Source: Armatimonadota bacterium (GTDB lineage: Bacteria; Armatimonadota; Zipacnadia; Zipacnadales; UBA5352). From it: DNA of 42,322 nt. The notes beneath the pieces were generated by a model, which searched no databases, was not told the origin of the DNA, and worked only from the letters and a program-made list of their open reading frames with translations. The stretch spans positions 1-42,322 of the forward strand of contig JAYENL010000003.1 of assembly GCA_034722055.1 (NCBI GenBank). The letters run 5' to 3'. The translations under genes were made by a program, and so were the position numbers. Numbering within the stretch: position 1 is the first letter of the stretch; each line of letters opens with the position of its first letter. Below, piece by piece: positions 24,880 through 34,806 of the stretch.

Positions 24880-25527
24880 CTGTGTCTGTAGGGCGCCGAT
24901 CTGTGCCGCGCCGAGGCCGTTGCCGTATGTCGTCCGTGGCACGGGCACTCCTGCCCGTGCGACGTTCGTCTGAACCTCCGCACGTCACTCTCCGCGTACC
25001 AACCTTCGCGTAGGTCGGGCTTCCAGCCCGACATTCTGTGCAGGGCCGGAGGATAGGCAGGGTGCAACGGCAGCGAACAACCGGGAGGGAACGTAGTCCC
25101 TCCCCTCCAAACGGCTGGACAACGACAAACGGCAGACGCGGCAGCGGTCCGCGTCTCACAGCGAGCGCCGCTTCAGGGTCACCCCCGCCTCGACTGGCGA
25201 ACGGCTGGGCCGGAACAGAGGCCGGCCCCTCCAAACGGCACGCCAATGGCACATGGGCCCGCGCTGCCGTCGCCGTCCGGAGCGGCGGCGTCTTCAGACC
25301 CGCCAGTCGTTTGTCCTCAGCCGTTGCCGTTGTTGTTCCGTGGGACGCACACTGGAGACCTCTGGTCTCGGTGCGTGCGCCATTTGGCGTTGTCGGTGAG
25401 ATCGCTTGCGATCTCCGGAAGCCCGACCTACGCGAAGGATGGAGACAATGACAACGGCTGGGCCGGAACAGAGGCCGGCCCCTCCAAACGGCTGGGCGAC
25501 GACAACGGCGGGCGCGCTCCACCGCGG
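24880..25527. repeat. REP mosaic between convergent genes
   Basis: GTGGCACGGGCACTCCTGCCCGTG (~24937), GTAG REP at 25010, GGGCCGGAACAGAGGCCGGCCCCTCC twice (~25207 and ~25460), variant GTAG REP at 25392-25431. Confidence 0.88.
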
Positions 25528-26838
25528 CTACTCCCGTACTGACCGGAGGGCTCTCAGCGCCGCCTGCACCATGGTCTCCTCGGTGCCCTTCGCGGCGCGG
25601 GCGGAGATCGCCAGCCACGTCTCATACCCGCCCTGATCCAGGGCATGGTCGGTCGGCAGGTAGCCCAGGTAGTCGTTCGCCAGCTCCACTGTCATGGTCC
25701 GCGCGAAGGGCGAGCTCCGCTTGATCGCCAGCCCGTACTCCACGAAGGTCTCCCCCGGGATGCCCACCATGCCCACGTCGCCGATGCGCATGGCCTGCAC
25801 CTGCGTCTCCTGCTCTACGGGGAGCGTCTCCACCTCCTGGCGCTCCTGCGCATAGAGCTCCTGCCGGGACTGGTGGACCTGCTCGATGGCATTGACGCCG
25901 CCGGCCACCACCCGCTCCTGCTCCTCGGCCAGGGTCCTGCGCCGGAAGATCGGATACTCCGACGCCGCCGCGACGGTGACCTCCTCCGCCTGCCGCTCGC
26001 GGAGCTGCCTCCAGGCCTTCCAGCACTCCGCCGCCAGGGCATTGCCCACCCGCACGCGATGGTACTGGGGTGAGGGCGGCGGCTCGGCGGGCCTCGTGAA
26101 GTCGATGTTGTTCGTGTCGCCGCAGCAGCCGTTGGCCATGATAGCCACGAACTCGCCTCCGGCCATCCGCTGCAGGGCCTCGGCGAAGGCCGCGAAGTAG
26201 TCCGCGGAGATCTCGCCCGGCCGTCCCCCGCCCACGTAGTGCAGCGAGTAGTTGGCGATGGCGGCGATGGGCTCGCCGTCGGGCGTCTCCGCCACCAGCA
26301 GCCCCACCTCCGGATCGGTAGGCCCGGCCGGTCGCACAAGCTCGTCGCCGCCCCGCGGCGGGTTCATCCGCACCTGCCCGTCCCTCATCCACCACCGCCG
26401 GTTGTGGGTCTCCTCGGGGCAGAAGCCGCTGGTGTGGCCGATGACCGCCGGCTGCAGGCGGTTCTGCGCCAGCTTCACCGCGTCCCCCATGCGCGGGACG
26501 GCCCACTGCGCGTACTCCTCATCCACGGGCTGCATGAAAAGGTGCGCCACCGGCGGGCCGTAGTGCGTGTGCGTGGCCGACATCATGATGTTGCCGGCCG
26601 GGATGCCGGTCAGCTCCTCGGCGCGGGCCTTGGCCTGGTCGAAGCGCTCCCGCGTCACGAACAGCAGGTCATTCTGCACGTAGGCCACCTGCGTATCGCC
26701 CTCATCGAAGACCAGGGCCTTCGCCTGCAGCGGGTAGCCCACGTCCTCCGACCTGCGCTGCGTCATGCTGCCGCTCATCAGCCCGCCCAGCAGCGGCGTG
26801 ATGTCCACCGACCCGGCCCCGACTCGAAGCTGTGCCAC
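25528..26838 (-). CDS. Neutral/alkaline ceramidase-like amidohydrolase, paralogue 2
   Basis: SVDITP, SATHTHYGP, NRRW, GPTDPEV, NYSLH, SADY, NGCCGD, PGETFVEYG, ELANDYLGYLPT, GGYE; GTG start after GGAGG. Confidence 0.85.
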   Translation of the reverse strand: MAQLRVGAGSVDITPLLGGLMSGSMTQRRSEDVGYPLQAKALVFDEGDTQVAYVQNDLLFVTRERFDQAKARAEELTGIPAGNIMMSATHTHYGPPVAHLFMQPVDEEYAQWAVPRMGDAVKLAQNRLQPAVIGHTSGFCPEETHNRRWWMRDGQVRMNPPRGGDELVRPAGPTDPEVGLLVAETPDGEPIAAIANYSLHYVGGGRPGEISADYFAAFAEALQRMAGGEFVAIMANGCCGDTNNIDFTRPAEPPPSPQYHRVRVGNALAAECWKAWRQLRERQAEEVTVAAASEYPIFRRRTLAEEQERVVAGGVNAIEQVHQSRQELYAQERQEVETLPVEQETQVQAMRIGDVGMVGIPGETFVEYGLAIKRSSPFARTMTVELANDYLGYLPTDHALDQGGYETWLAISARAAKGTEETMVQAALRALRSVRE

Positions 26839-26840
26839 GG

Positions 26841-28172
26841 TCAATCCTCCTGACGGTCGGCGACCTCTCGCAGGCACTCCAGCGCGGTGGTGACGAACAG
26901 CTCCTCGCTGCCCTTGGCGACGCGCGAGATGCTGGACAGCCACGTCTCGTAGCCGCCCTGGTCGAGGCCCTCGTCGGTGGGCACGTAGCCGATCCAGTCG
27001 TTCGCCAGCTCGATGGTCATGGTGCGCTCCAAGGGCGACTGGCGCTTGATGCTCAGCCCGTATTCGGCGAAGAACTCGCCGGGCAGCCCCACGATCCCCA
27101 GGTCGCCGATGCGCAGCGCCTGCACCACGGTCTCGATCTCCAGCGGCCACTGGTCGATGCGCTCGCGCTCCTGCGCGTAGCCCTCCACGCCGTCGGACCA
27201 CTTGTCGCCGATCTGCTCCACGGCCCGCTGGCCGCCCGCGACCACGCGCTGCTGCTCCTCCTCGGCGGTCCGCCGGCGGTACTTCGGCGTGGCGACCGCG
27301 GAGGCCATGGTGGCCTCCTCCTGCCGCCCGCGAAGCTGGCTCCAGCGCTTCCAGCACTCCGCCGCGAGGGCGTTGCCGACCCGATCCACATCGTAGTCGG
27401 GGTAGGGCCGGGGCTTGCCCGGCGGCGGCTGGGTGCGGTCGATGTTGTTGATGTCCCCGCAGCAGCCGTTGGCCATGATGGCCACGAACTGGGCGCCGGC
27501 GAGCCGCTGCAGCGCCTCCCCGAAGGCGCCGAAGTAGTCCGCCGACAGCGTGTTGGCCGCCCCGCCCACGTAGTGCAGGGAGTAGTTGGCGATGGCCGCG
27601 ATGGGCTCGCCGTCCGGCGTCTCGGCCACCAGCAGCCCCACCTCGGGGTCCGTCGGCCCGGCGGGGCGCATCAGCTCGTCGCTGGCGACCGGCGGGTTCA
27701 TACGCACCGAGCCGTCCGTCATCCACCACCGGCGGTTATGCGTCTCCTCCGGGCAGGAGCCGGAAGTGTGGCCGATGACCGCCGGCCGCAGGCGGTTGTG
27801 AGCCAGCTTCACGGCGTCCCCGATGCGCTGCACCAGCCAGTCGATGTACTCCTCCTCGTCGTCGAGGCTGAACATGCTGTAGGTCGCGGGGCCGTAGTGC
27901 GTGTGCGTGCAGCTCATCATCATGTTGCCGGCCGGGATGCCCGTCAGCTCCTCCGCGCGGGCCTTGGCGCGGTCGAACTGCTCGCGCACGAGCAGCAGCA
28001 GGTCGTTCTGCACGTAGGCCACCTGCGTCTCGCCGTCATCGAAGACGACGGCCTTGCTCTGCAGCGGGTAGCTGACATCCTCCGCGTGCCGTGGGGAGAG
28101 AAAGCCGGACATGCGGGTGCCCAGCCCCGGCGTGATGTCGATCTGCGCTGCGCCCACCTGAAGATCGCCCAT
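26841..28172 (-). CDS. Neutral/alkaline ceramidase-like amidohydrolase, paralogue 1
   Basis: Same motif series (IDITP, CTHTHYGP, NYSLH, SADY, NGCCGD, PGEFF, GYVPT, GGYE). Confidence 0.85.
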   Translation of the reverse strand: MGDLQVGAAQIDITPGLGTRMSGFLSPRHAEDVSYPLQSKAVVFDDGETQVAYVQNDLLLLVREQFDRAKARAEELTGIPAGNMMMSCTHTHYGPATYSMFSLDDEEEYIDWLVQRIGDAVKLAHNRLRPAVIGHTSGSCPEETHNRRWWMTDGSVRMNPPVASDELMRPAGPTDPEVGLLVAETPDGEPIAAIANYSLHYVGGAANTLSADYFGAFGEALQRLAGAQFVAIMANGCCGDINNIDRTQPPPGKPRPYPDYDVDRVGNALAAECWKRWSQLRGRQEEATMASAVATPKYRRRTAEEEQQRVVAGGQRAVEQIGDKWSDGVEGYAQERERIDQWPLEIETVVQALRIGDLGIVGLPGEFFAEYGLSIKRQSPLERTMTIELANDWIGYVPTDEGLDQGGYETWLSSISRVAKGSEELFVTTALECLREVADRQED

Positions 28173-28309: not shown

Positions 28310-29059
28310 ATGGCCGATCGATCCGGCGCCTCTGGACTCAGCGCGGTGGCTCGGGGGGCGCGGCATCCGGCGTCGCTGGTCATCGCGGCGGCGACGGTCG
28401 CGGCCGGGCTGCTGGTGGCGCCATGGCTGGCCGCTGCGGGCGTGGTGCTGTGGCTCGCGGTCAGCTACGCCCTCGGCCGCCGGCCGACTGCGGCGCCGCC
28501 GACCATCGACACCGGCGGCCTCCCGCCCAGCATCCAGCGCGACCTGGCGGGCGTGCAGGAGGCCGTGGAGCGGTTGCGGGAGTCCATCGACAGCCTGCAG
28601 CCCGGCCAGCGGGAGCTGTTCGCGGGGTTGGAGGAGGAGGCGGAGGAGCTGCGCGAGGCCGCCGCCCGGCTGGCACTGGCCGCCGGCGCACTGCACGCCC
28701 GGCTCGCCCGGCAGCGCCCGGAGGAGCTGCAGTCGGAGATCGACGGGCTGCGGGAGCGCCTGGAGGTGACCGGGGAGGAGGAGGCGGCGCGCCGGCGGCT
28801 GCAGCAGTCCATCGAGGCACTGCAACGGCGGCTGGCGCGGCGCAGTGAGCTGATGGAGCGGCTGGAGCGCTACCGTTCCACGCTCGGCGGCATGCAGACG
28901 GAGATCGAGGATCTGGCGGATCGCGCCGGCGGCCTGGCGCGCGGCGAGGAGTGGGCGGCTGACGAGGCGGTGGAGGAGCCGCGGCGGCGCATGGACAGCC
29001 TCAAGGCCTCGGTGGCCGCCGCCGAGGAGGTCATGGGCAGGGACGTGGAGACGGCCTGA
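28310..29059 (+). CDS. Membrane-anchored (2-TM) coiled-coil protein A
   Basis: N-terminal hydrophobic hairpin then a long helical region; start at 28295 or 28310. Confidence 0.75.
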   Translation: MADRSGASGLSAVARGARHPASLVIAAATVAAGLLVAPWLAAAGVVLWLAVSYALGRRPTAAPPTIDTGGLPPSIQRDLAGVQEAVERLRESIDSLQPGQRELFAGLEEEAEELREAAARLALAAGALHARLARQRPEELQSEIDGLRERLEVTGEEEAARRRLQQSIEALQRRLARRSELMERLERYRSTLGGMQTEIEDLADRAGGLARGEEWAADEAVEEPRRRMDSLKASVAAAEEVMGRDVETA

Positions 29060-29084
29060 CTGACGCCGCCGCGAAGGAGGGGCC

Positions 29085-29822
29085 ATGCGCCATCGCGGCT
29101 CGTGCTCGCCGGAGGCGCTGCTGGTGCGCGCGCTGACCGATCCCTGGTCACTGGGCATCGGCGCAGCGGTCGGCGGCGTGGCTCTCTTCATGTCGCCGAC
29201 CATCGGGGCATTGCTGGTGCCCCTCTGGGTGCTGGCGGTCTTCGTGATCTACCAGGTGCGCTGGTCGGCACTCCGGCTCCCGGTTACAATACAGCGGAGA
29301 GTCGAGGCCATCGAGGCGGCCCTGGCTGACCCCCAGGAGTCCCTCGGCGCGCTGCCCGGCGACACGCGGAGAGTACTGGAGGATGGGCGGCGGAGCCTGG
29401 CCGACCTGCGGCGAGCCGTGCATGCCATCGCGGGGCGGGCCGCGGCGCTCTCCCGCCGCCTGGAGTCGATCCCGCCGGCGGACATCGAGGAGGCCCTGGC
29501 CGGGCGGCGGCAGGCGCTGGCGAGCCCGCGTGACGCACAGGCGCGTCGAGAGATCGCGCGGTCGATCCAGGTGCTGCAGACGCGCCTGCGTCGCCGCCGG
29601 GCGCTGCAGGAGCGCCTCGGTCGCTACGAGGTCACCATGAGCGCGCTGCAGACCGACATCGAGGACATGACCGAGCGGGTCGCGATGCTGGCGATGGGGG
29701 ATGAGGGGCGGAGCGGAGATCTGCCCGCCCACCAGCTCGCCCGGCTGGCCGCGGGCGTCGCGGCCCTGGAGCAGGTCATGGGCAGCGAAGCGCAGATCGA
29801 GACCGACACCGAGAGTGCCTGA
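29085..29822 (+). CDS. Membrane-anchored (2-TM) coiled-coil protein B, paralogue of A
   Basis: Shares LPxxIQR, SIxxLQxRLxRR, ERLxRY..T...QT(E/D)IED and VAAxExVMG with A; RBS AAGGAGG. Confidence 0.78.
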   Translation: MRHRGSCSPEALLVRALTDPWSLGIGAAVGGVALFMSPTIGALLVPLWVLAVFVIYQVRWSALRLPVTIQRRVEAIEAALADPQESLGALPGDTRRVLEDGRRSLADLRRAVHAIAGRAAALSRRLESIPPADIEEALAGRRQALASPRDAQARREIARSIQVLQTRLRRRRALQERLGRYEVTMSALQTDIEDMTERVAMLAMGDEGRSGDLPAHQLARLAAGVAALEQVMGSEAQIETDTESA

Positions 29823-29870
29823 CATGTTCGCACACCGGGCACCGCCCGGATACACCTGGAGGTGACGTCC

Positions 29871-30689
29871 ATGTGGGCGCGCATCAAGGCGATCTTTCGC
29901 TCACTGTTCGGCTGGCTGCTGAGGGGCATGGAGCATCCGGAGATGCTCCTGCGGCAGTACATGGATGACATGCGATCGCAGATCCCGAGACTCAACGCGC
30001 AGGTCGCCGAGGTCATCAAGCACGAGAAGCTGCTGGAGATGGAGGCGGAGCGCAAGCGGCAGACCGTGGCCGAGCTGGAGCCACGGGTGGAGGCCGCCGT
30101 GAAGATGGGCCCGGAGAAGAAGGAGGCCGCCAAGCGCCTCATCGTCTCCCTGGAGACCGCCAAGGGCGAGCTGGCGGAGCTGGAGGAGCAGCTTGAGCGG
30201 GCGCGCCAGAACTCCCAGAACATGATGCGCCAGCGCACCGCCTACGAGCAGCGCATCAAAAGGCAGATCGATGAGGCCAAGCGGCAGCTCTCCCGCGCCA
30301 AGCGGGCCGAGGTGGAGAAGCAGATCGCCTCCACCATGGCCAGCTTCGAGGTGGGCGACGCCTCCGACACGCTGGAGCGCGTCACGGAGCGCATCGACGA
30401 GGAGCTCGCCCGCTCCAAGGCCCGCCAGGAGGTGGCCTCGGACACGCTCGAGAGCCAGATGGCCGAGCTTGAGCTGGACGTGGCCGACCAGCAGGCGGAG
30501 CTGGCCTACGTCGAATACCAGCGCCAGCTCGGGCTCATCCCCGACGAGGAGGCGGAGCGGACCATGGAGTCCGTGGCCCAGGAGGGGGAGGGGGAGCACG
30601 TCACCGGCCCGCCCAGCCACGAGGAGATGGAGGAGATCGAGCGGGAGATGCAGGCTGAGCAGACCGAAGAGGCCGAGCAGGAACAGTAG
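29871..30689 (+). CDS. pspA: PspA/IM30 (ESCRT-III superfamily) protein with acidic C-terminal tail
   Basis: Amphipathic N-helix MWARIKAIFRS, MEHPEMLLRQYMDDM, long coiled coil, LERVTERIDEE..A; RBS GGAGG. Confidence 0.88.
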   Translation: MWARIKAIFRSLFGWLLRGMEHPEMLLRQYMDDMRSQIPRLNAQVAEVIKHEKLLEMEAERKRQTVAELEPRVEAAVKMGPEKKEAAKRLIVSLETAKGELAELEEQLERARQNSQNMMRQRTAYEQRIKRQIDEAKRQLSRAKRAEVEKQIASTMASFEVGDASDTLERVTERIDEELARSKARQEVASDTLESQMAELELDVADQQAELAYVEYQRQLGLIPDEEAERTMESVAQEGEGEHVTGPPSHEEMEEIEREMQAEQTEEAEQEQ

Positions 30690-30700
30690 GCTGAAACCGC

Positions 30701-32431
30701 ATGTCCGAGACCGCTCAGAAGCTGCCACTGCCGCCATGGGCCGAGGACGTGCGCGGCGCCTTCACCAGCGGCGCCGCCTCGGTCTTCCTGCTGCACGGGG
30801 TGCGCGACCTGGTGCCCTTCGGGGAGCGCTACGTCCCCCTGCCCGAGTTCCTGCACCGGGCCTTCTGTGGCGGCAAGCGCACTGTCTTCTACGACATCGG
30901 CTCGGGCATCAGCCTGCCCACGCCGGAGGACGAGAAACAGTTCAAGGCCTTCCTGGACGTGCGCGCCGCCCGTGGCGATCCGCCCCTGGCGATGCGCGAC
31001 AGCTACCGTCCGGAGCTGACCATCCCGGTGCTGCATGAGTACCTCATGAGCCGGGACCGCGTGGCGCTGATCATCGACTTCGTGGACAAGGTGTTCCCGG
31101 CGCAGGAGGAGCGGTTCATGAGCGCCGAGGAGCGGCGGCTGCTGGCCACCGTCCGCTCCTGGTCCACCGACCCCCGGCTGATGCGTCGCAACAGCTTCGT
31201 GCTGCTCATCGCCGAATCCCTCACGGATGTGCACGAGGACCTCTACACCCGCGGAGGGGGCACCGCCCTGGTGGAGCTGCCCCTGCCGGACGAGCCGCAG
31301 CGGTTGGAGTACATCAACCAGCTCCTCGAGCTGGACGAGGACTCGGACGCCCCCGCCTCCGACGACGACGACCTGGCGCTGTCCCGGCAGGTGCTGGCCC
31401 AGACGTCCAACGGCATGACGCTGCAGCAGATCGCCGCCATGATCCGCTCGGCCCACGCCGAGGGTCGGGCCCTGGACCTCGCGGAGGTCGGGCGACACAA
31501 GCGCGACGCCATCGAGGCGGAGATCGGCGAACTGGTGGAGTTCACTGAGTCCCCCTTCGGCCTCGACGCCGTGGCCGGCGTGGAGAGGCAGAAGCAACTG
31601 CTGCTGGACACCGTGCGCGCCCTTCGCGAGGGCCGCACCGGCCTGGTGCCCAAGGGCATCCTGCTGCTGGGGCCGCCGGGAACGGGCAAGACCTTCACCA
31701 TGCAGTGCTTCGCGCGGGACATCGGCATCCCGTTCGTGGAGCTGCGCAACATCTTCTCCAAGTACGTGGGCTCCACGGAGGCCAACCTGGAGAAGCTGTT
31801 CCACTACCTGGAGGCGCTGGCGCCCATCTTCGTCTTCATCGACGAGTTCGACCAGAGCTACGGGCGGCGCGTGACCACTGACAGCGACTCCGGCGTCTCC
31901 CGGCGCGTCTTCGGGATGTTCAACAACTTCCTGTCCGACGATTCCCATCAGGGGCGCATCATCTTCGGTGCCGCCACCAACCGCCCCGACCTCATCGACC
32001 ACGCCACCATGCGGGCGGGGCGCTTCGACCTGAAGATCCCCTTCCTGCTGCCCAACGCAGAGGCCCGCGACGCCATCCTGCGCGTGACCATCCGCAACCT
32101 GGGCGTGGACTTCGAGGACGGCGATCTCGGCGAGGTCGCCGAGGGCACGGGCGGCCACTCCGGGGCCGACCTGCGCGAGCTGGTGCGCATCGCCCAGCGC
32201 CGGGCCTTCAGCGAGGGCCATGAGCAGGTGAGGGTGGAGGACCTGGTCTTCGCGGTCGAGGATTACATCCCGCCGGGCATCTCCCGCGCCGACGAGATCC
32301 GCGCCATGGAGCTGCAGGCGGTGGCGAATACCACGTCGCGATCGCTGCTGCCCGACCACTACATCGCGGCCCTGGAGAGCGGCCGCCTCCACGAGGACCT
32401 CCGCGACCTGGAGCTGCGCCTGGGGTGGTGA
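30701..32431 (+). CDS. Classical-clade AAA+ ATPase with degenerate N-terminal and intact C-terminal AAA modules
   Basis: Second module: GILLLGPPGTGKT, pore loop SKYVG, FIDEFD, ATNRPD, RAGRFD, SGADL. First module relics: FLLHGVRD, LIIDFVD, LPLPDEPQR. Confidence 0.9.
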   Translation: MSETAQKLPLPPWAEDVRGAFTSGAASVFLLHGVRDLVPFGERYVPLPEFLHRAFCGGKRTVFYDIGSGISLPTPEDEKQFKAFLDVRAARGDPPLAMRDSYRPELTIPVLHEYLMSRDRVALIIDFVDKVFPAQEERFMSAEERRLLATVRSWSTDPRLMRRNSFVLLIAESLTDVHEDLYTRGGGTALVELPLPDEPQRLEYINQLLELDEDSDAPASDDDDLALSRQVLAQTSNGMTLQQIAAMIRSAHAEGRALDLAEVGRHKRDAIEAEIGELVEFTESPFGLDAVAGVERQKQLLLDTVRALREGRTGLVPKGILLLGPPGTGKTFTMQCFARDIGIPFVELRNIFSKYVGSTEANLEKLFHYLEALAPIFVFIDEFDQSYGRRVTTDSDSGVSRRVFGMFNNFLSDDSHQGRIIFGAATNRPDLIDHATMRAGRFDLKIPFLLPNAEARDAILRVTIRNLGVDFEDGDLGEVAEGTGGHSGADLRELVRIAQRRAFSEGHEQVRVEDLVFAVEDYIPPGISRADEIRAMELQAVANTTSRSLLPDHYIAALESGRLHEDLRDLELRLGW

Positions 32432-32434
32432 AGG

Positions 32435-32970
32435 GCAGCTAACAGTCGCCAGCGATCAGCTATCAGCGAACGGCAACGAACTACGGCCCAAGGCCTCTCC
32501 TCCCCACAATCCCTCTTGGCCGTCTGTCTCGTGTCGTACGGCTTACCTTTACCGGAGACTGCATGGCAGTCTCACGGAGGTCGCACGGCGACCTCAAGAC
32601 CTTCGGTCTCATGCGGAGGGCTGTTGGCCGTGGAGGGGCCGCCTGAGGGCGCTCCTCAGGAGCGCGCGAAGTCGGCCCGCTGCAGGCGAAGTGACGCAAT
32701 CGGCGGCCTGGACGGCCAACGGCCGGGCCGGCTTCGGCTGCAGCGAACGATGCTGGAGCCTCAGACGGCCCCTCCGGACGGCAGACAGCGAATCGCCACT
32801 CGCCACGATGTGGGTAAAGGTAAGGTCGTACGGAGGGGCGGGCTTCCTTGCCCGCCCGGTCGTTCGTCATGCCGCTTGGAGGGGCGCGACTACGCTCGCG
32901 CGCGATTGTGGTCATTCGGTGGTGACCGCACGCGGAACGGCGCACGCACAGGAGTGTGCGTGCCACGGAA
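32435..32970. repeat. Intergenic mosaic: heptamer run, IR-bounded structured element (32535-32832), GGAG and GTGG REPs
   Basis: CTTACCTTTACC (32542) pairs with GGTAAAGGTAAG (32813); GGAGGGGCGGGCTTCCTTGCCCGCCC at 32832 is identical to 19571. Confidence 0.8.
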
Positions 32971-33098
32971 CGCCCCAATCTGAGGCCGCACCCTTGCCGT
33001 CGCGGCAGGGCTACGGTGCCCCGCGCTGAAGGACTCCGCGCTGTGACAAGGAAGCTACCGTGGCCGTATGAGCGTGACCCATCGCTGGAGGTCCGAGG

Positions 33099-33950
33099 AT
33101 GAAGGTCTACATCGTCACTGACCTGGAGGGCGTGGCCGGCGTCACGCAGTGGGACCCGCGCCACGAGGGTAATAACGCCGCCACCGCCCTGGCGCGACGC
33201 CGATTCGCCCGCTGGCTGACCGAGGAGGTCAACGCCGCCGCGCGAGGCCTCTTCGCCGGCGGCGCCACGGAGGTTATCGTCAACGACGGGCATGGCGCAG
33301 GGCAGACCATCGACGTGGAGCATGTTGATCCCCGCATAAAGATCTTCCATGGCACCGAGCGGCCCAACTACTGCACCGGTCTCGACGAGACCTGCGACGC
33401 CATCGCCAGCGTCGGCACCCACGCCAAGGCCGGCACCGAGCACGGCAACCTGGCGCACACCATGGGCACGGGCGTGCGAGGCTACTGGATCAACGGCGTC
33501 AGCGTGGGCGAGACCGGCCTGCAGGCCTTCCTGGCCGGCGAGTATGGAGTGCCCTACGTCTTCTGTGCGGGCGACGAGTGGGCGGTGCGGGAGATGCAGC
33601 AGCTCGTTCCAGGCTGTGTGGGCGCCGCCGTCAAGTACGGCACCAGCACGCTCTCGGCGCTCACATGCACGCCCCAGCGCGCCCGCGAGATCATCGAGGA
33701 GGGCGCGGAGCGAGCCATGCAGGGCATCGGTGAGGTTGAGCCGCTGGAGCCGGGCTCGCCGGTGCTCTTCCGCGAGGAGCACCACGAGCCGGTCTTCGAC
33801 CCCGAGGAGCCGCGGGAGGGCTGCCGGATTATCGACGCCCACACCCTCGAGATCGAGGCGGACACGCTCAAGGACCTGCTGGACATTAAGTACGGCTATG
33901 ACCCGGACTGGACGCCGGCGTGGGCGCAGCCCTGGTTCGAGGAGGCTTGA
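33099..33950 (+). CDS. M55 family metallopeptidase (DppA D-aminopeptidase-like), paralogue 1
   Basis: TDLEGVAG, EVNAA, NDGHG, GTHA, LAHT, GETG, AGD, VKYG. Confidence 0.92.
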   Translation: MKVYIVTDLEGVAGVTQWDPRHEGNNAATALARRRFARWLTEEVNAAARGLFAGGATEVIVNDGHGAGQTIDVEHVDPRIKIFHGTERPNYCTGLDETCDAIASVGTHAKAGTEHGNLAHTMGTGVRGYWINGVSVGETGLQAFLAGEYGVPYVFCAGDEWAVREMQQLVPGCVGAAVKYGTSTLSALTCTPQRAREIIEEGAERAMQGIGEVEPLEPGSPVLFREEHHEPVFDPEEPREGCRIIDAHTLEIEADTLKDLLDIKYGYDPDWTPAWAQPWFEEA

Positions 33951-33954
33951 AGCC

Positions 33955-34806
33955 ATGCGCATGCACATCATGACCGACCTGGAGGGCGTGGCAGGCGTCT
34001 GCCAGTGGGAGAACCGCGACGACACCGGGCCGGCGAATGCCCTGCGGCGCCAGCGGCTGAGCCGCCTGCTGGCGGGAGAGGTGAACGCGGCCATCGAAGG
34101 CCTGCTGGCGGCCGGCTTCGACGAGGTCATCGTGAATGACGGCCACGGCTCGGGATCGACGATCGATTACGACATCGCCGACCCCCGCGCGCTCTACTAC
34201 CACGGCCGGGAGCGCCCCTTCTGGCTGCCGTTCCTCAGCGACCGGTGCGCCGCCACCGGTGCGGTGGGCGCGCACTCCAGGGCCAGCACCCCCAGCGGCT
34301 GCCTGGCGCACACCATGAGCGGCGCCATCCGCAGGTGGACCATCAATGATCTGGAGGTGGGGGAGACCGGCCTGCAGGCCCTCATCGCGGGCTACCACGG
34401 CGTGCCGTTCATCTTCGCGGCCGGCGACATCTGGCTGTGCCGGGAGATGGAGGAGACGGTCCCCGGCTGCGTGACGGTGCCGATGAAGTACGGGACAAGC
34501 AAGCACTCGGCGATGGCCCTGCCGCCGCAGCGGGCCTGTGAGCTGATCCGGGAGGGCGCCGAGCGGGCCATGGAGGCCATCGACTGCGTGGAGCCGCTGG
34601 CGCTGGAGTCCCCGGTGCTGTGGCGCGATGAGCGGGTGGACCCCACCTGGGATGAGGAGGAGGACCAGCCTGAGGGCATCACCATCGTCAATGCGCACGT
34701 CCGGGAGATCGTCGGCGAGGACCTCATGGACGTCATCCAGAAGGTGTACCCGAACTACGACTACGACTTCGCGCCCGAGGAGTGGACGCCCGGCGTGCGA
34801 ACGTGA
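33955..34806 (+). CDS. M55 family metallopeptidase, paralogue 2
   Basis: TDLEGVAG, NDGHG, GAHS, LAHT, GETG; ATG 33955 after GGAGG. Confidence 0.92.
   Translation: MRMHIMTDLEGVAGVCQWENRDDTGPANALRRQRLSRLLAGEVNAAIEGLLAAGFDEVIVNDGHGSGSTIDYDIADPRALYYHGRERPFWLPFLSDRCAATGAVGAHSRASTPSGCLAHTMSGAIRRWTINDLEVGETGLQALIAGYHGVPFIFAAGDIWLCREMEETVPGCVTVPMKYGTSKHSAMALPPQRACELIREGAERAMEAIDCVEPLALESPVLWRDERVDPTWDEEEDQPEGITIVNAHVREIVGEDLMDVIQKVYPNYDYDFAPEEWTPGVRT

Follow-up and report, generated by a model that had tools for sequence, protein, structure and literature searches.

The closest described relative of the locus analysed here is a gene dyad reported by Ravi et al. (mSystems 2024; PMC11237479), in which PspA is encoded together with a protein of the architecture "inactive classical AAA + classical AAA". 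The dyad was found with membrane-anchored divergent-Snf7 proteins ("TM + Snf7-like") or with other coiled-coil proteins, with examples from Clostridium, Mycolicibacterium and Handelsmanbacteria, and an ATP-dependent membrane remodelling comparable to that by Snf7 and Vps4 was proposed as its function; the word "Armatimonad" does not occur in the main text or supplement as available. Here we describe a locus of this kind in a stretch of 42,322 nucleotides from an Armatimonadota bacterium (GenBank assembly GCA_034722055.1, contig JAYENL010000003.1, positions 1 to 42,322 of the forward strand; hereafter the window). Four adjacent genes encode two proteins with a pair of putative transmembrane (TM) helices each (TM1 and TM2), PspA, and an ATPase with two AAA domains, a degenerate first (D1) and a catalytic second (D2). 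The locus is a representative from Armatimonadota, in which the membrane partner is duplicated, of the dyad already described computationally. The module itself was previously catalogued, and the additions of the present analysis are a motif in the C-terminal tail of PspA and its predicted docking on D1.

Compared with the published dyad, the locus shares the pspA gene adjoining that for a two-AAA protein with an inactive N-terminal copy, a pair often accompanied by a membrane-anchored helical protein, and it shares the proposed function, ATP-dependent membrane remodelling akin to that by Snf7/Vps4. It differs in the lack of the ABC transporter/PBPB-OmpA extension, in the duplication of the membrane partner, and in this partner itself, for which no homology to Snf7 or PspA was detected. 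Neither the tail motif nor its docking on D1 was found in the available text of that paper. An original prediction, made from the window sequence alone, had stated that neighbourhoods of PspA and AAA ATPases were noted in comparative genomics; this is true, the dyad and the Vps4 analogy having been published in more detail than the prediction implied. It had also stated that no functional characterisation was known, in agreement with our survey of the full-text literature, in which no functional study of the tandem AAA ATPase was found; most subscription journals lie outside its coverage, so such a study may exist.

The second system for comparison is ESCRT-III/Vps4, including CdvB/CdvC of archaea. 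A 2025 review states of a Vps4-like regulator that it "appears absent in bacteria" (PMC7619361). ESCRT systems with vps4 are restricted to archaea and eukaryotes in the account of Makarova et al. (2024). As in those systems, an ESCRT-III-superfamily polymer and a classical-clade AAA ATPase are encoded alongside each other at the present locus, and a motif in the C-terminal tail of the polymer is predicted to be recognised by the non-catalytic N-terminal module of the ATPase, as the MIT-interacting motif (MIM) is recognised by the MIT domain. In contrast to Vps4, the ATPase described here has no MIT domain and carries two AAA cassettes instead of one, its putative recognition module is a dead AAA domain, and its D2 scores best with models of Cdc48, FtsH and PAN. 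We regard the likeness to ESCRT-III/Vps4 as one of analogy, not orthology.

Conservation of the PspA-ATPase module

The four genes, all on the plus strand, are aligned in the order TM1-TM2-pspA-ATPase with intergenic gaps of 25, 48 and 11 nucleotides, as read from the open reading frame (ORF) list and the junction sequences, confirming the tight co-directional spacing of the original prediction. The pspA gene (29871-30689, plus strand) directs synthesis of 272 amino acids of a PspA/IM30 protein of the ESCRT-III superfamily, which matched PF04012 with E of 5.8e-26 and 91.9 bits (cut-off 33.9) over profile positions 3-209 of 220, and which is the sole PF04012 match in this genome (6.1 Mb in 330 contigs, 92.7% complete). 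The gene for the tandem classical AAA ATPase (30701-32431, plus strand; 576 amino acids) begins 11 nucleotides past the stop codon of pspA. Shine-Dalgarno-like sequences GAGG, AAGGAGG and GGAGG precede the starts of TM1, TM2 and pspA, respectively.

After sampling of 401 Armatimonadota genomes representing 208 genera, the ATPase's N-terminal domain was detected in 97 genomes (51 of the 208 genera) and PF04012 in 306. As read from the two tables, PF04012 was also present in 95 of the 97 ATPase-bearing genomes versus 211 of the 304 others. A total of 100 Armatimonadota ATPase loci were then searched with hidden Markov models built iteratively from the window proteins. The pspA gene was located within 3 kb upstream on the same strand at 55 loci, farther away at 2 and on the opposite strand at 1, while 30 loci had none and 12 were cut by contig ends; the linkage of pspA and ATPase thus holds for 55 of the 88 assessable loci. 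In a FastTree tree of 95 ATPases, which is to be read with local support values only and with long-branch caveats, the linked loci are distributed over three deep clades: one with the order and class of the window, one with family f39 and one, long-branched, with families f15, f31 and f28. For 14 of the 30 unlinked loci, 19 ORFs next to the ATPase were scanned against Pfam; no common alternative partner was detected, the neighbours being unrelated genes (MFS, acyltransferase, GGDEF, ABC and glycosidase).

The family extends beyond the phylum. With the N-domain profile, 658 clusters were detected at E <= 1e-30 among 1.84 billion representatives. A scan of a genome collection with a 12-sequence full-length alignment yielded 47 full-length relatives (L126-L172), after 33 further rows with matches to D2 only were left out. 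Two of the 47 are from Armatimonadota (79% and 58% identity) and 45 are more distant (29-37%), including records of Sericytochromatia, Acidobacteriota, Gemmatimonadota, Verrucomicrobiota, Planctomycetota, Pseudomonadota, Myxococcota and Bacteroidota. Well-assembled or culturable carriers are found among these relatives, such as records of Chitinophaga pinensis, Lysobacteraceae and Luteolibacter. A pspA gene was located within 4.5 kb on the same strand at 37 of the 47 loci, and a gene of the TM family at 23. The order of genes (P, pspA; T, TM gene; A, ATPase) was PA at 15 loci, PTA at 9, TPA at 5, TAP at 5, TA at 3, AP at 2 and PAT at 1, and the ATPase stood alone at 7. The order is shuffled and yet the association is conserved, which argues for a functional linkage. 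The PspA-ATPase module is therefore conserved within the phylum and beyond it, in at least seven other phyla; absence of such conservation had been named in advance as an observation that would refute the original prediction.

In loci L023 (genome G302) and L127, both from close relatives, the TM gene directly abuts the ATPase gene with no pspA between them; G302 carries PspA elsewhere.

Domains of the ATPase and the C-terminal tail of PspA

Pfam recognised one AAA cassette in the ATPase, with PF00004 at residues 320-448 and AAA_lid_3 at residues 475-515. The catalytic core of D2 (31670-32029, plus strand, as given by the motif positions) consists of Walker A GPPGTGKT (31670-31693; residues 324-331), the pore loop SKYVG (31757-31771; residues 353-357), Walker B FIDEFD (31835-31852; residues 379-384), the sensor-1 region ATNRPD (31973-31990) and the arginine fingers RAGRFD (32012-32029; residues 438-443), all on the plus strand. 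Among 52 family sequences, K330, T331, G357, D381, E382, R438 and R441 are invariant, and position 355 of the pore loop is always aromatic (W in 28, Y in 24). D2 thus carries the features of the classical AAA clade: Walker A, Walker B, a pore loop of aromatic-hydrophobic-Gly type and a second region of homology with two arginine fingers.

For residues 1-300, no Pfam match was obtained. A profile of 72 sequences of this region matched D1 of p97/Cdc48 with E of 2e-13, IIDFVDKVFP being aligned to the Walker B strand, and Foldseek matched its AlphaFold2 model (mean predicted local distance difference test score, pLDDT, 89.5) to Cdc48, p97 and katanin with E of about 1e-9 and probability 1.00. In D1 (30701-31540, plus strand; residues about 1-280), LHGVRD and a short beta-hairpin are found instead of the P-loop, IIDFVD stands at the place of Walker B, and the position of the Walker B glutamate is occupied by F, Y, A or D in the family. 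A stray GK[ST] tripeptide was detected in 3 of the 72 N-domains around window-protein position 57-59, which is not the position of the P-loop. This region is, as judged from its sequence, a degenerate AAA domain unable to bind or hydrolyse ATP, with both the Walker A P-loop and the Walker B glutamate missing. The pairing of a dead first module with an intact second module bearing SKYVG and RxGRFD, as originally predicted, was borne out by the motif positions and by the profile and fold of D1.

The nearest relatives of D2 are VAT, p97 and Cdc48 (200-228 bits), and the Cdc48-like scaffold proposed for the ATPase is well supported by these scores together with the D1 match. As in Cdc48, p97 and VAT, two classical AAA domains are arranged in tandem and D1 is homologous to that of p97. 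In contrast to these proteins, the double-psi-barrel N domain is absent, D1 starting at about residue 10, and D1 is devoid of Walker A and of the Walker B glutamate. The ATPase scored 82.3 bits with the CdvC/Vps4 model NF041006 (cut-off 650) and 131.7 bits with the CDC48 model TIGR01243 (cut-off 802.65), and by these models it belongs neither to Vps4 nor to Cdc48 proper. No Pfam match to the MIT domain was detected in the ATPase, residues 1-300 being folded in the model as an AAA domain instead.

Two variations were noticed within the ATPase family. A Chloroflexota member (P0190) is annotated with a LAGLIDADG homing endonuclease, suggesting an intein, and four members of about 820 amino acids (P0122, P0133, P0149 and P0239) carry an extra N-terminal segment of about 240-250 residues ahead of D1.

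PspA of the window starts with the amphipathic helix alpha0 (29871-29927, plus strand; residues 1-19), which is conserved across the N-termini of the ATPase-linked PspAs and is presumed to bind membranes, a role taken from published work on PspA/Vipp1 (10.1101/2025.06.13.659447). At the other end, the tails of the linked PspAs are variable and acidic, and in an alignment of 57 sequences no residues beyond the RQLG helix have a majority other than K-T-M-x-P. In the window, this motif (consensus K/R-T-M-x-P) is represented by R230-T231-M232-E233-S234-V235 (30558-30575, plus strand), a candidate site for recognition by the ATPase.

The occurrence of the motif follows that of the ATPase. Within the last 70 residues, [KRQ]TM was found in 41 of the 57 linked PspAs versus none of 20 Armatimonadota PspAs that are unlinked, the counts being the same for the last 50 residues, while shuffled tails gave a mean of 1.4 of 57. 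Of the 20 unlinked proteins, 15 are encoded in genomes that have no ATPase of this family, and 5 are second copies in ATPase-bearing genomes. Outside Armatimonadota, the motif is less strict and takes the form K/R-x-M/L/I, after which either x-P or the end of the protein follows. A relaxed pattern, [KR].[MLI](.P or end), defined after the sequences had been seen, was present in 32 of the 57 linked Armatimonadota PspAs, in 24 of 38 linked PspAs of other phyla and in none of the 20 unlinked ones, the shuffled means being 3.7, 2.7 and 1.0, respectively. In 12 of the 38 PspAs of other phyla, as counted from the printed tails, the tripeptide K/R-x-M/L/I is the exact C-terminus. A third, still looser pattern also matched 7 of the 20 unlinked tails and is uninformative. 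In all five genomes checked in which the ATPase does not adjoin pspA, PspA encoded elsewhere still carries the motif, as EKTMEP, SRTMEP, PRQLSP and, in two cases, terminal GRQL.

The structure of a complex was predicted for the full ATPase, as a monomer, with residues 195-272 of PspA in three runs and with three controls. The complex score was 0.62 (0.53, 0.65 and 0.62 in the individual runs), the best of the three controls giving 0.01. Of 157 solved complexes, 116 attain this mark, as do 2 of 215 mismatched pairs; these rates are rough for the present case as custom alignments were used. The runs share at least 47% of the contacts, with a partner pLDDT of at least 53. The contacts of lowest predicted error are between PspA residues 230-235, the motif itself, and D1 residues 17-24, 52-58 and 159-166. 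The motif had been singled out from its conservation before the complex was predicted. We know of no solved complex of this kind, and it seems unlikely for this reason that the score reflects recall of a known structure. The tail motif of PspA is thus predicted to dock on the dead D1, and the binding of PspA to the ATPase, for which multimer modelling had been suggested, is supported by a controlled prediction.

Proposed extraction of PspA subunits and alternative explanations

Based on these observations, we can propose a mode of action of the module, which would comprise PspA, an AAA unfoldase dedicated to it, and a membrane anchor, present here in two copies. PspA would polymerise on the stressed cytoplasmic membrane via alpha0. 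The ATPase, which like other classical AAA proteins is presumably hexameric, would use the ring of dead D1 domains as a recognition platform for binding of K/R-T-M in the flexible C-terminal tail of PspA, and the active D2 ring, with its pore loop, Walker A and B and arginine fingers, would thread and pull PspA subunits from the polymer. The polymer would thereby be disassembled and recycled in an ATP-dependent manner, the job of Vps4 for ESCRT-III, on a separately arisen Cdc48-like scaffold. The 2-TM helical-bundle proteins, placed in the same compartment, would hold the system at the membrane. For recognition of the PspA tail by D1 and extraction of PspA subunits by D2, Vps4-like by analogy and not by descent, we estimate a probability of roughly 0.55.

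A wider form of this proposal, which we put forward tentatively and hold to be somewhat less probable than its alternatives taken together, is that the K/R-T-M motif represents the bacterial counterpart of MIM, with the dead D1 in the role of MIT, and that at least eight phyla independently built a machine of ESCRT-III polymer and disassemblase with a third, unrelated family of membrane anchors. If true, this reading contradicts the review quoted above on the apparent absence of a Vps4-like regulator from bacteria (PMC7619361). The disassembly of bacterial ESCRT-III-type polymers, such as PspA and Vipp1, is an open question, and the module may show how PspA polymers are recycled. A widespread motor dedicated to PspA would, if real, change the view that Vps4-like ATPases are absent in bacteria, and would represent a case of convergent evolution, in which recognition is the task of the dead ring of a Cdc48-like motor. 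For tests of the hypothesis, a specific and mutable handle is provided by the tail motif together with the surface of D1 on which it is predicted to dock.

Several observations weigh against extraction of PspA by the ATPase. Of the 88 Armatimonadota loci that could be assessed, 30 have no adjacent pspA, and the ATPases of families f13, f19, f36 and f46 are unlinked as whole clades. The predicted interface on D1 is no better conserved than the other D1 residues (mean 0.44 versus 0.48 among the linked sequences), the ATPase was modelled in monomeric form, and the confidence of the partner is modest (pLDDT 54-64). The linked PspAs are mutually related and the shared tail motif could partly reflect common descent, to which the late definition of the relaxed pattern has to be added. 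The data presented here fit recruitment or regulation as well as disassembly.

The best-supported alternative is recruitment: PspA would be an adaptor, its tail bringing the motor to damaged membrane, and the clients would be damaged membrane proteins or the 2-TM partner, in the style of quality control by Msp1, FtsH or Cdc48. The docking of the tail on D1 and the conserved neighbourhood suit this role equally well; D2 is nearest to general unfoldases; and the TM family accompanies the ATPase even without an intervening or local pspA, as in L023, L127 and the TA loci (3 of 47). Neither a protease domain nor a protease gene is present in the module, however. PspA is the only partner that is universal among the phyla and belongs itself to the type of polymer that AAA motors disassemble, and the motif forms the very C-terminus in 12 PspAs, as expected of an entry point for threading. 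We consider recruitment as the sole role of PspA unlikely.

Less probable again is a regulatory pair resembling PspA and PspF, in which PspA would inhibit the AAA protein until released by membrane stress, the output of the ATPase being unrelated to PspA polymers. Binding of PspA to the AAA+ protein PspF, with inhibition of the latter, is known from Proteobacteria (PMC7619361), and binding is predicted also for the present pair. Against this reading, no domain for DNA binding or for another output is present in the ATPase, which is a classical-clade AAA protein with a substrate-threading pore loop, not one of NtrC type. The predicted contact, moreover, is made by the C-terminal tail of PspA, while the published binding of PspF is placed in PspA 1-144, according to a title cited in PMC13051332.

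An anti-phage defence system, or another unrelated system that merely contains an AAA ATPase, is suggested by matches of PADLOC IetA models (E 1.1e-30) and NCBIfam IteA (7.9e-27) to D2, but is very improbable given that the IetA-like matches are restricted to the generic AAA core (residues 317-526), that an IetS-like protease partner is absent, that the NCBIfam match reaches 94 bits where the cut-off is 510, that the flanking genes are metabolic and that the conserved partner is PspA.

Membrane proteins and surroundings of the operon

TM1 (28310-29059, plus strand; 249 amino acids) starts with an ATG to which its orthologues align, and is followed by its paralogue TM2 (29085-29822, plus strand; 245 amino acids). 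The two proteins share 31% identity (E 2e-25) and each carries an N-terminal pair of hydrophobic helices, in agreement with the two paralogous 2-TM proteins of the original prediction. In the AlphaFold2 model of TM1 (alignment of 31 sequences, pLDDT 90.2), helices 20-35 and 38-57 are followed by a five-helix bundle at residues 73-248. The hairpin has basic residues on either side, from which an N-in/C-in topology with a cytoplasmic bundle is to be expected. In relatives the TM gene is single-copy, and TM1 is its orthologue (42-49% identity, family f1). TM2 is a diverged second copy, which among 101 Armatimonadota loci was found in this window alone, the others having at most one copy. A word-indexed search for homologues of TM2 returned TM2 itself alone, and the relatives were found via gene neighbourhoods. 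At L069:8723-9704 (genome G273), the TM gene is split into two overlapping ORFs by a frameshift or an assembly error, and was counted as one gene.

The TM proteins had also been predicted to form an ESCRT-III-like hairpin and to nucleate or recruit PspA, for which no support was obtained. With hhalign, the TM family matched the PspA family with probabilities of 3.1% and 3.3%. A search with 42 TM-family members at E 0.05 gave no PspA or Snf7 among the first 25 of 63 matched families, and Snf7 (PF03357) had no match at the locus up to E 10. Foldseek of the TM1 model returned nothing at E <= 0.001 and no ESCRT-III among the fold matches. VIA-align gave only generic helical bundles with a best Z of 11.3, below the level that is meaningful for helical proteins with this tool; such proteins are hard to place by fold, which limits the negative result.

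PspM (Rv2743c) was examined as another candidate. The PspM system resembles the present one in that a small membrane partner is encoded beside PspA, the 2-TM partner being similar in layout. A language-model feature search with the TM protein placed the Rv2743c cluster at rank 17 with a score of 0.92, and this likeness of features is the sole link to PspM. PF25587 matched neither TM1 nor TM2 at E 10 or in the Pfam scans, and the cluster differs from the PspM system also in having no transcription regulator; the candidate was rejected. The TM family is a conserved and uncharacterised third component of the module. From its co-occurrence and topology, it most likely tethers or positions the system at the membrane.

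The window has a G+C content of about 68%. The locus differs from the proteobacterial Psp system (PspF-PspABC) in that PspB (PF06667) and PspC (PF04024) were not found by profile searches of the whole 92.7%-complete genome. This negative result, originally noted for the operon, extends to the genome as assembled; for PspF, the statement stands for the four genes and their flanks, among which no PspF-like protein was detected, with no genome-wide search for sigma-54 activators made. Promoter and terminator scans gave no promoter-like site and one terminator-like site, which is located on the wrong strand and is at the level of chance. Rfam and tRNA scans of the window gave no match, and the 667-nucleotide spacer downstream of the operon (32432-33098) is likewise free of Rfam matches, tRNA and repeats.

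The genes flanking the operon are unrelated to it and metabolic, as judged by a Pfam scan of the neighbours: two ceramidase-like genes on the minus strand upstream, and two M55 peptidase genes followed by a Gfo/Idh/MocA oxidoreductase gene downstream. The upstream pair (25528-28172, minus strand) consists of tandem paralogues of about 430 and 443 amino acids, divergently aligned to the PspA operon, which showed a weak match to the N-terminal part of neutral/alkaline ceramidase (PF04734; E 7.6e-07 and 1.5e-11). The gap of 700 nucleotides between these genes and an oxidoreductase gene contains repeated DNA (24916-25518), including a 66-nucleotide unit present three times (61-100% identity), a 34-nucleotide pair and a 26-nucleotide inverted repeat (96% complementary). 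Downstream, the tandem paralogues at 33099-34806 code for M55 D-aminopeptidases (PF04951; E 3.5e-66 and 3.5e-56). Among the sequencing runs listed as containing the stretch, none is of RNA and four are DNA runs from one brine-metagenome study.

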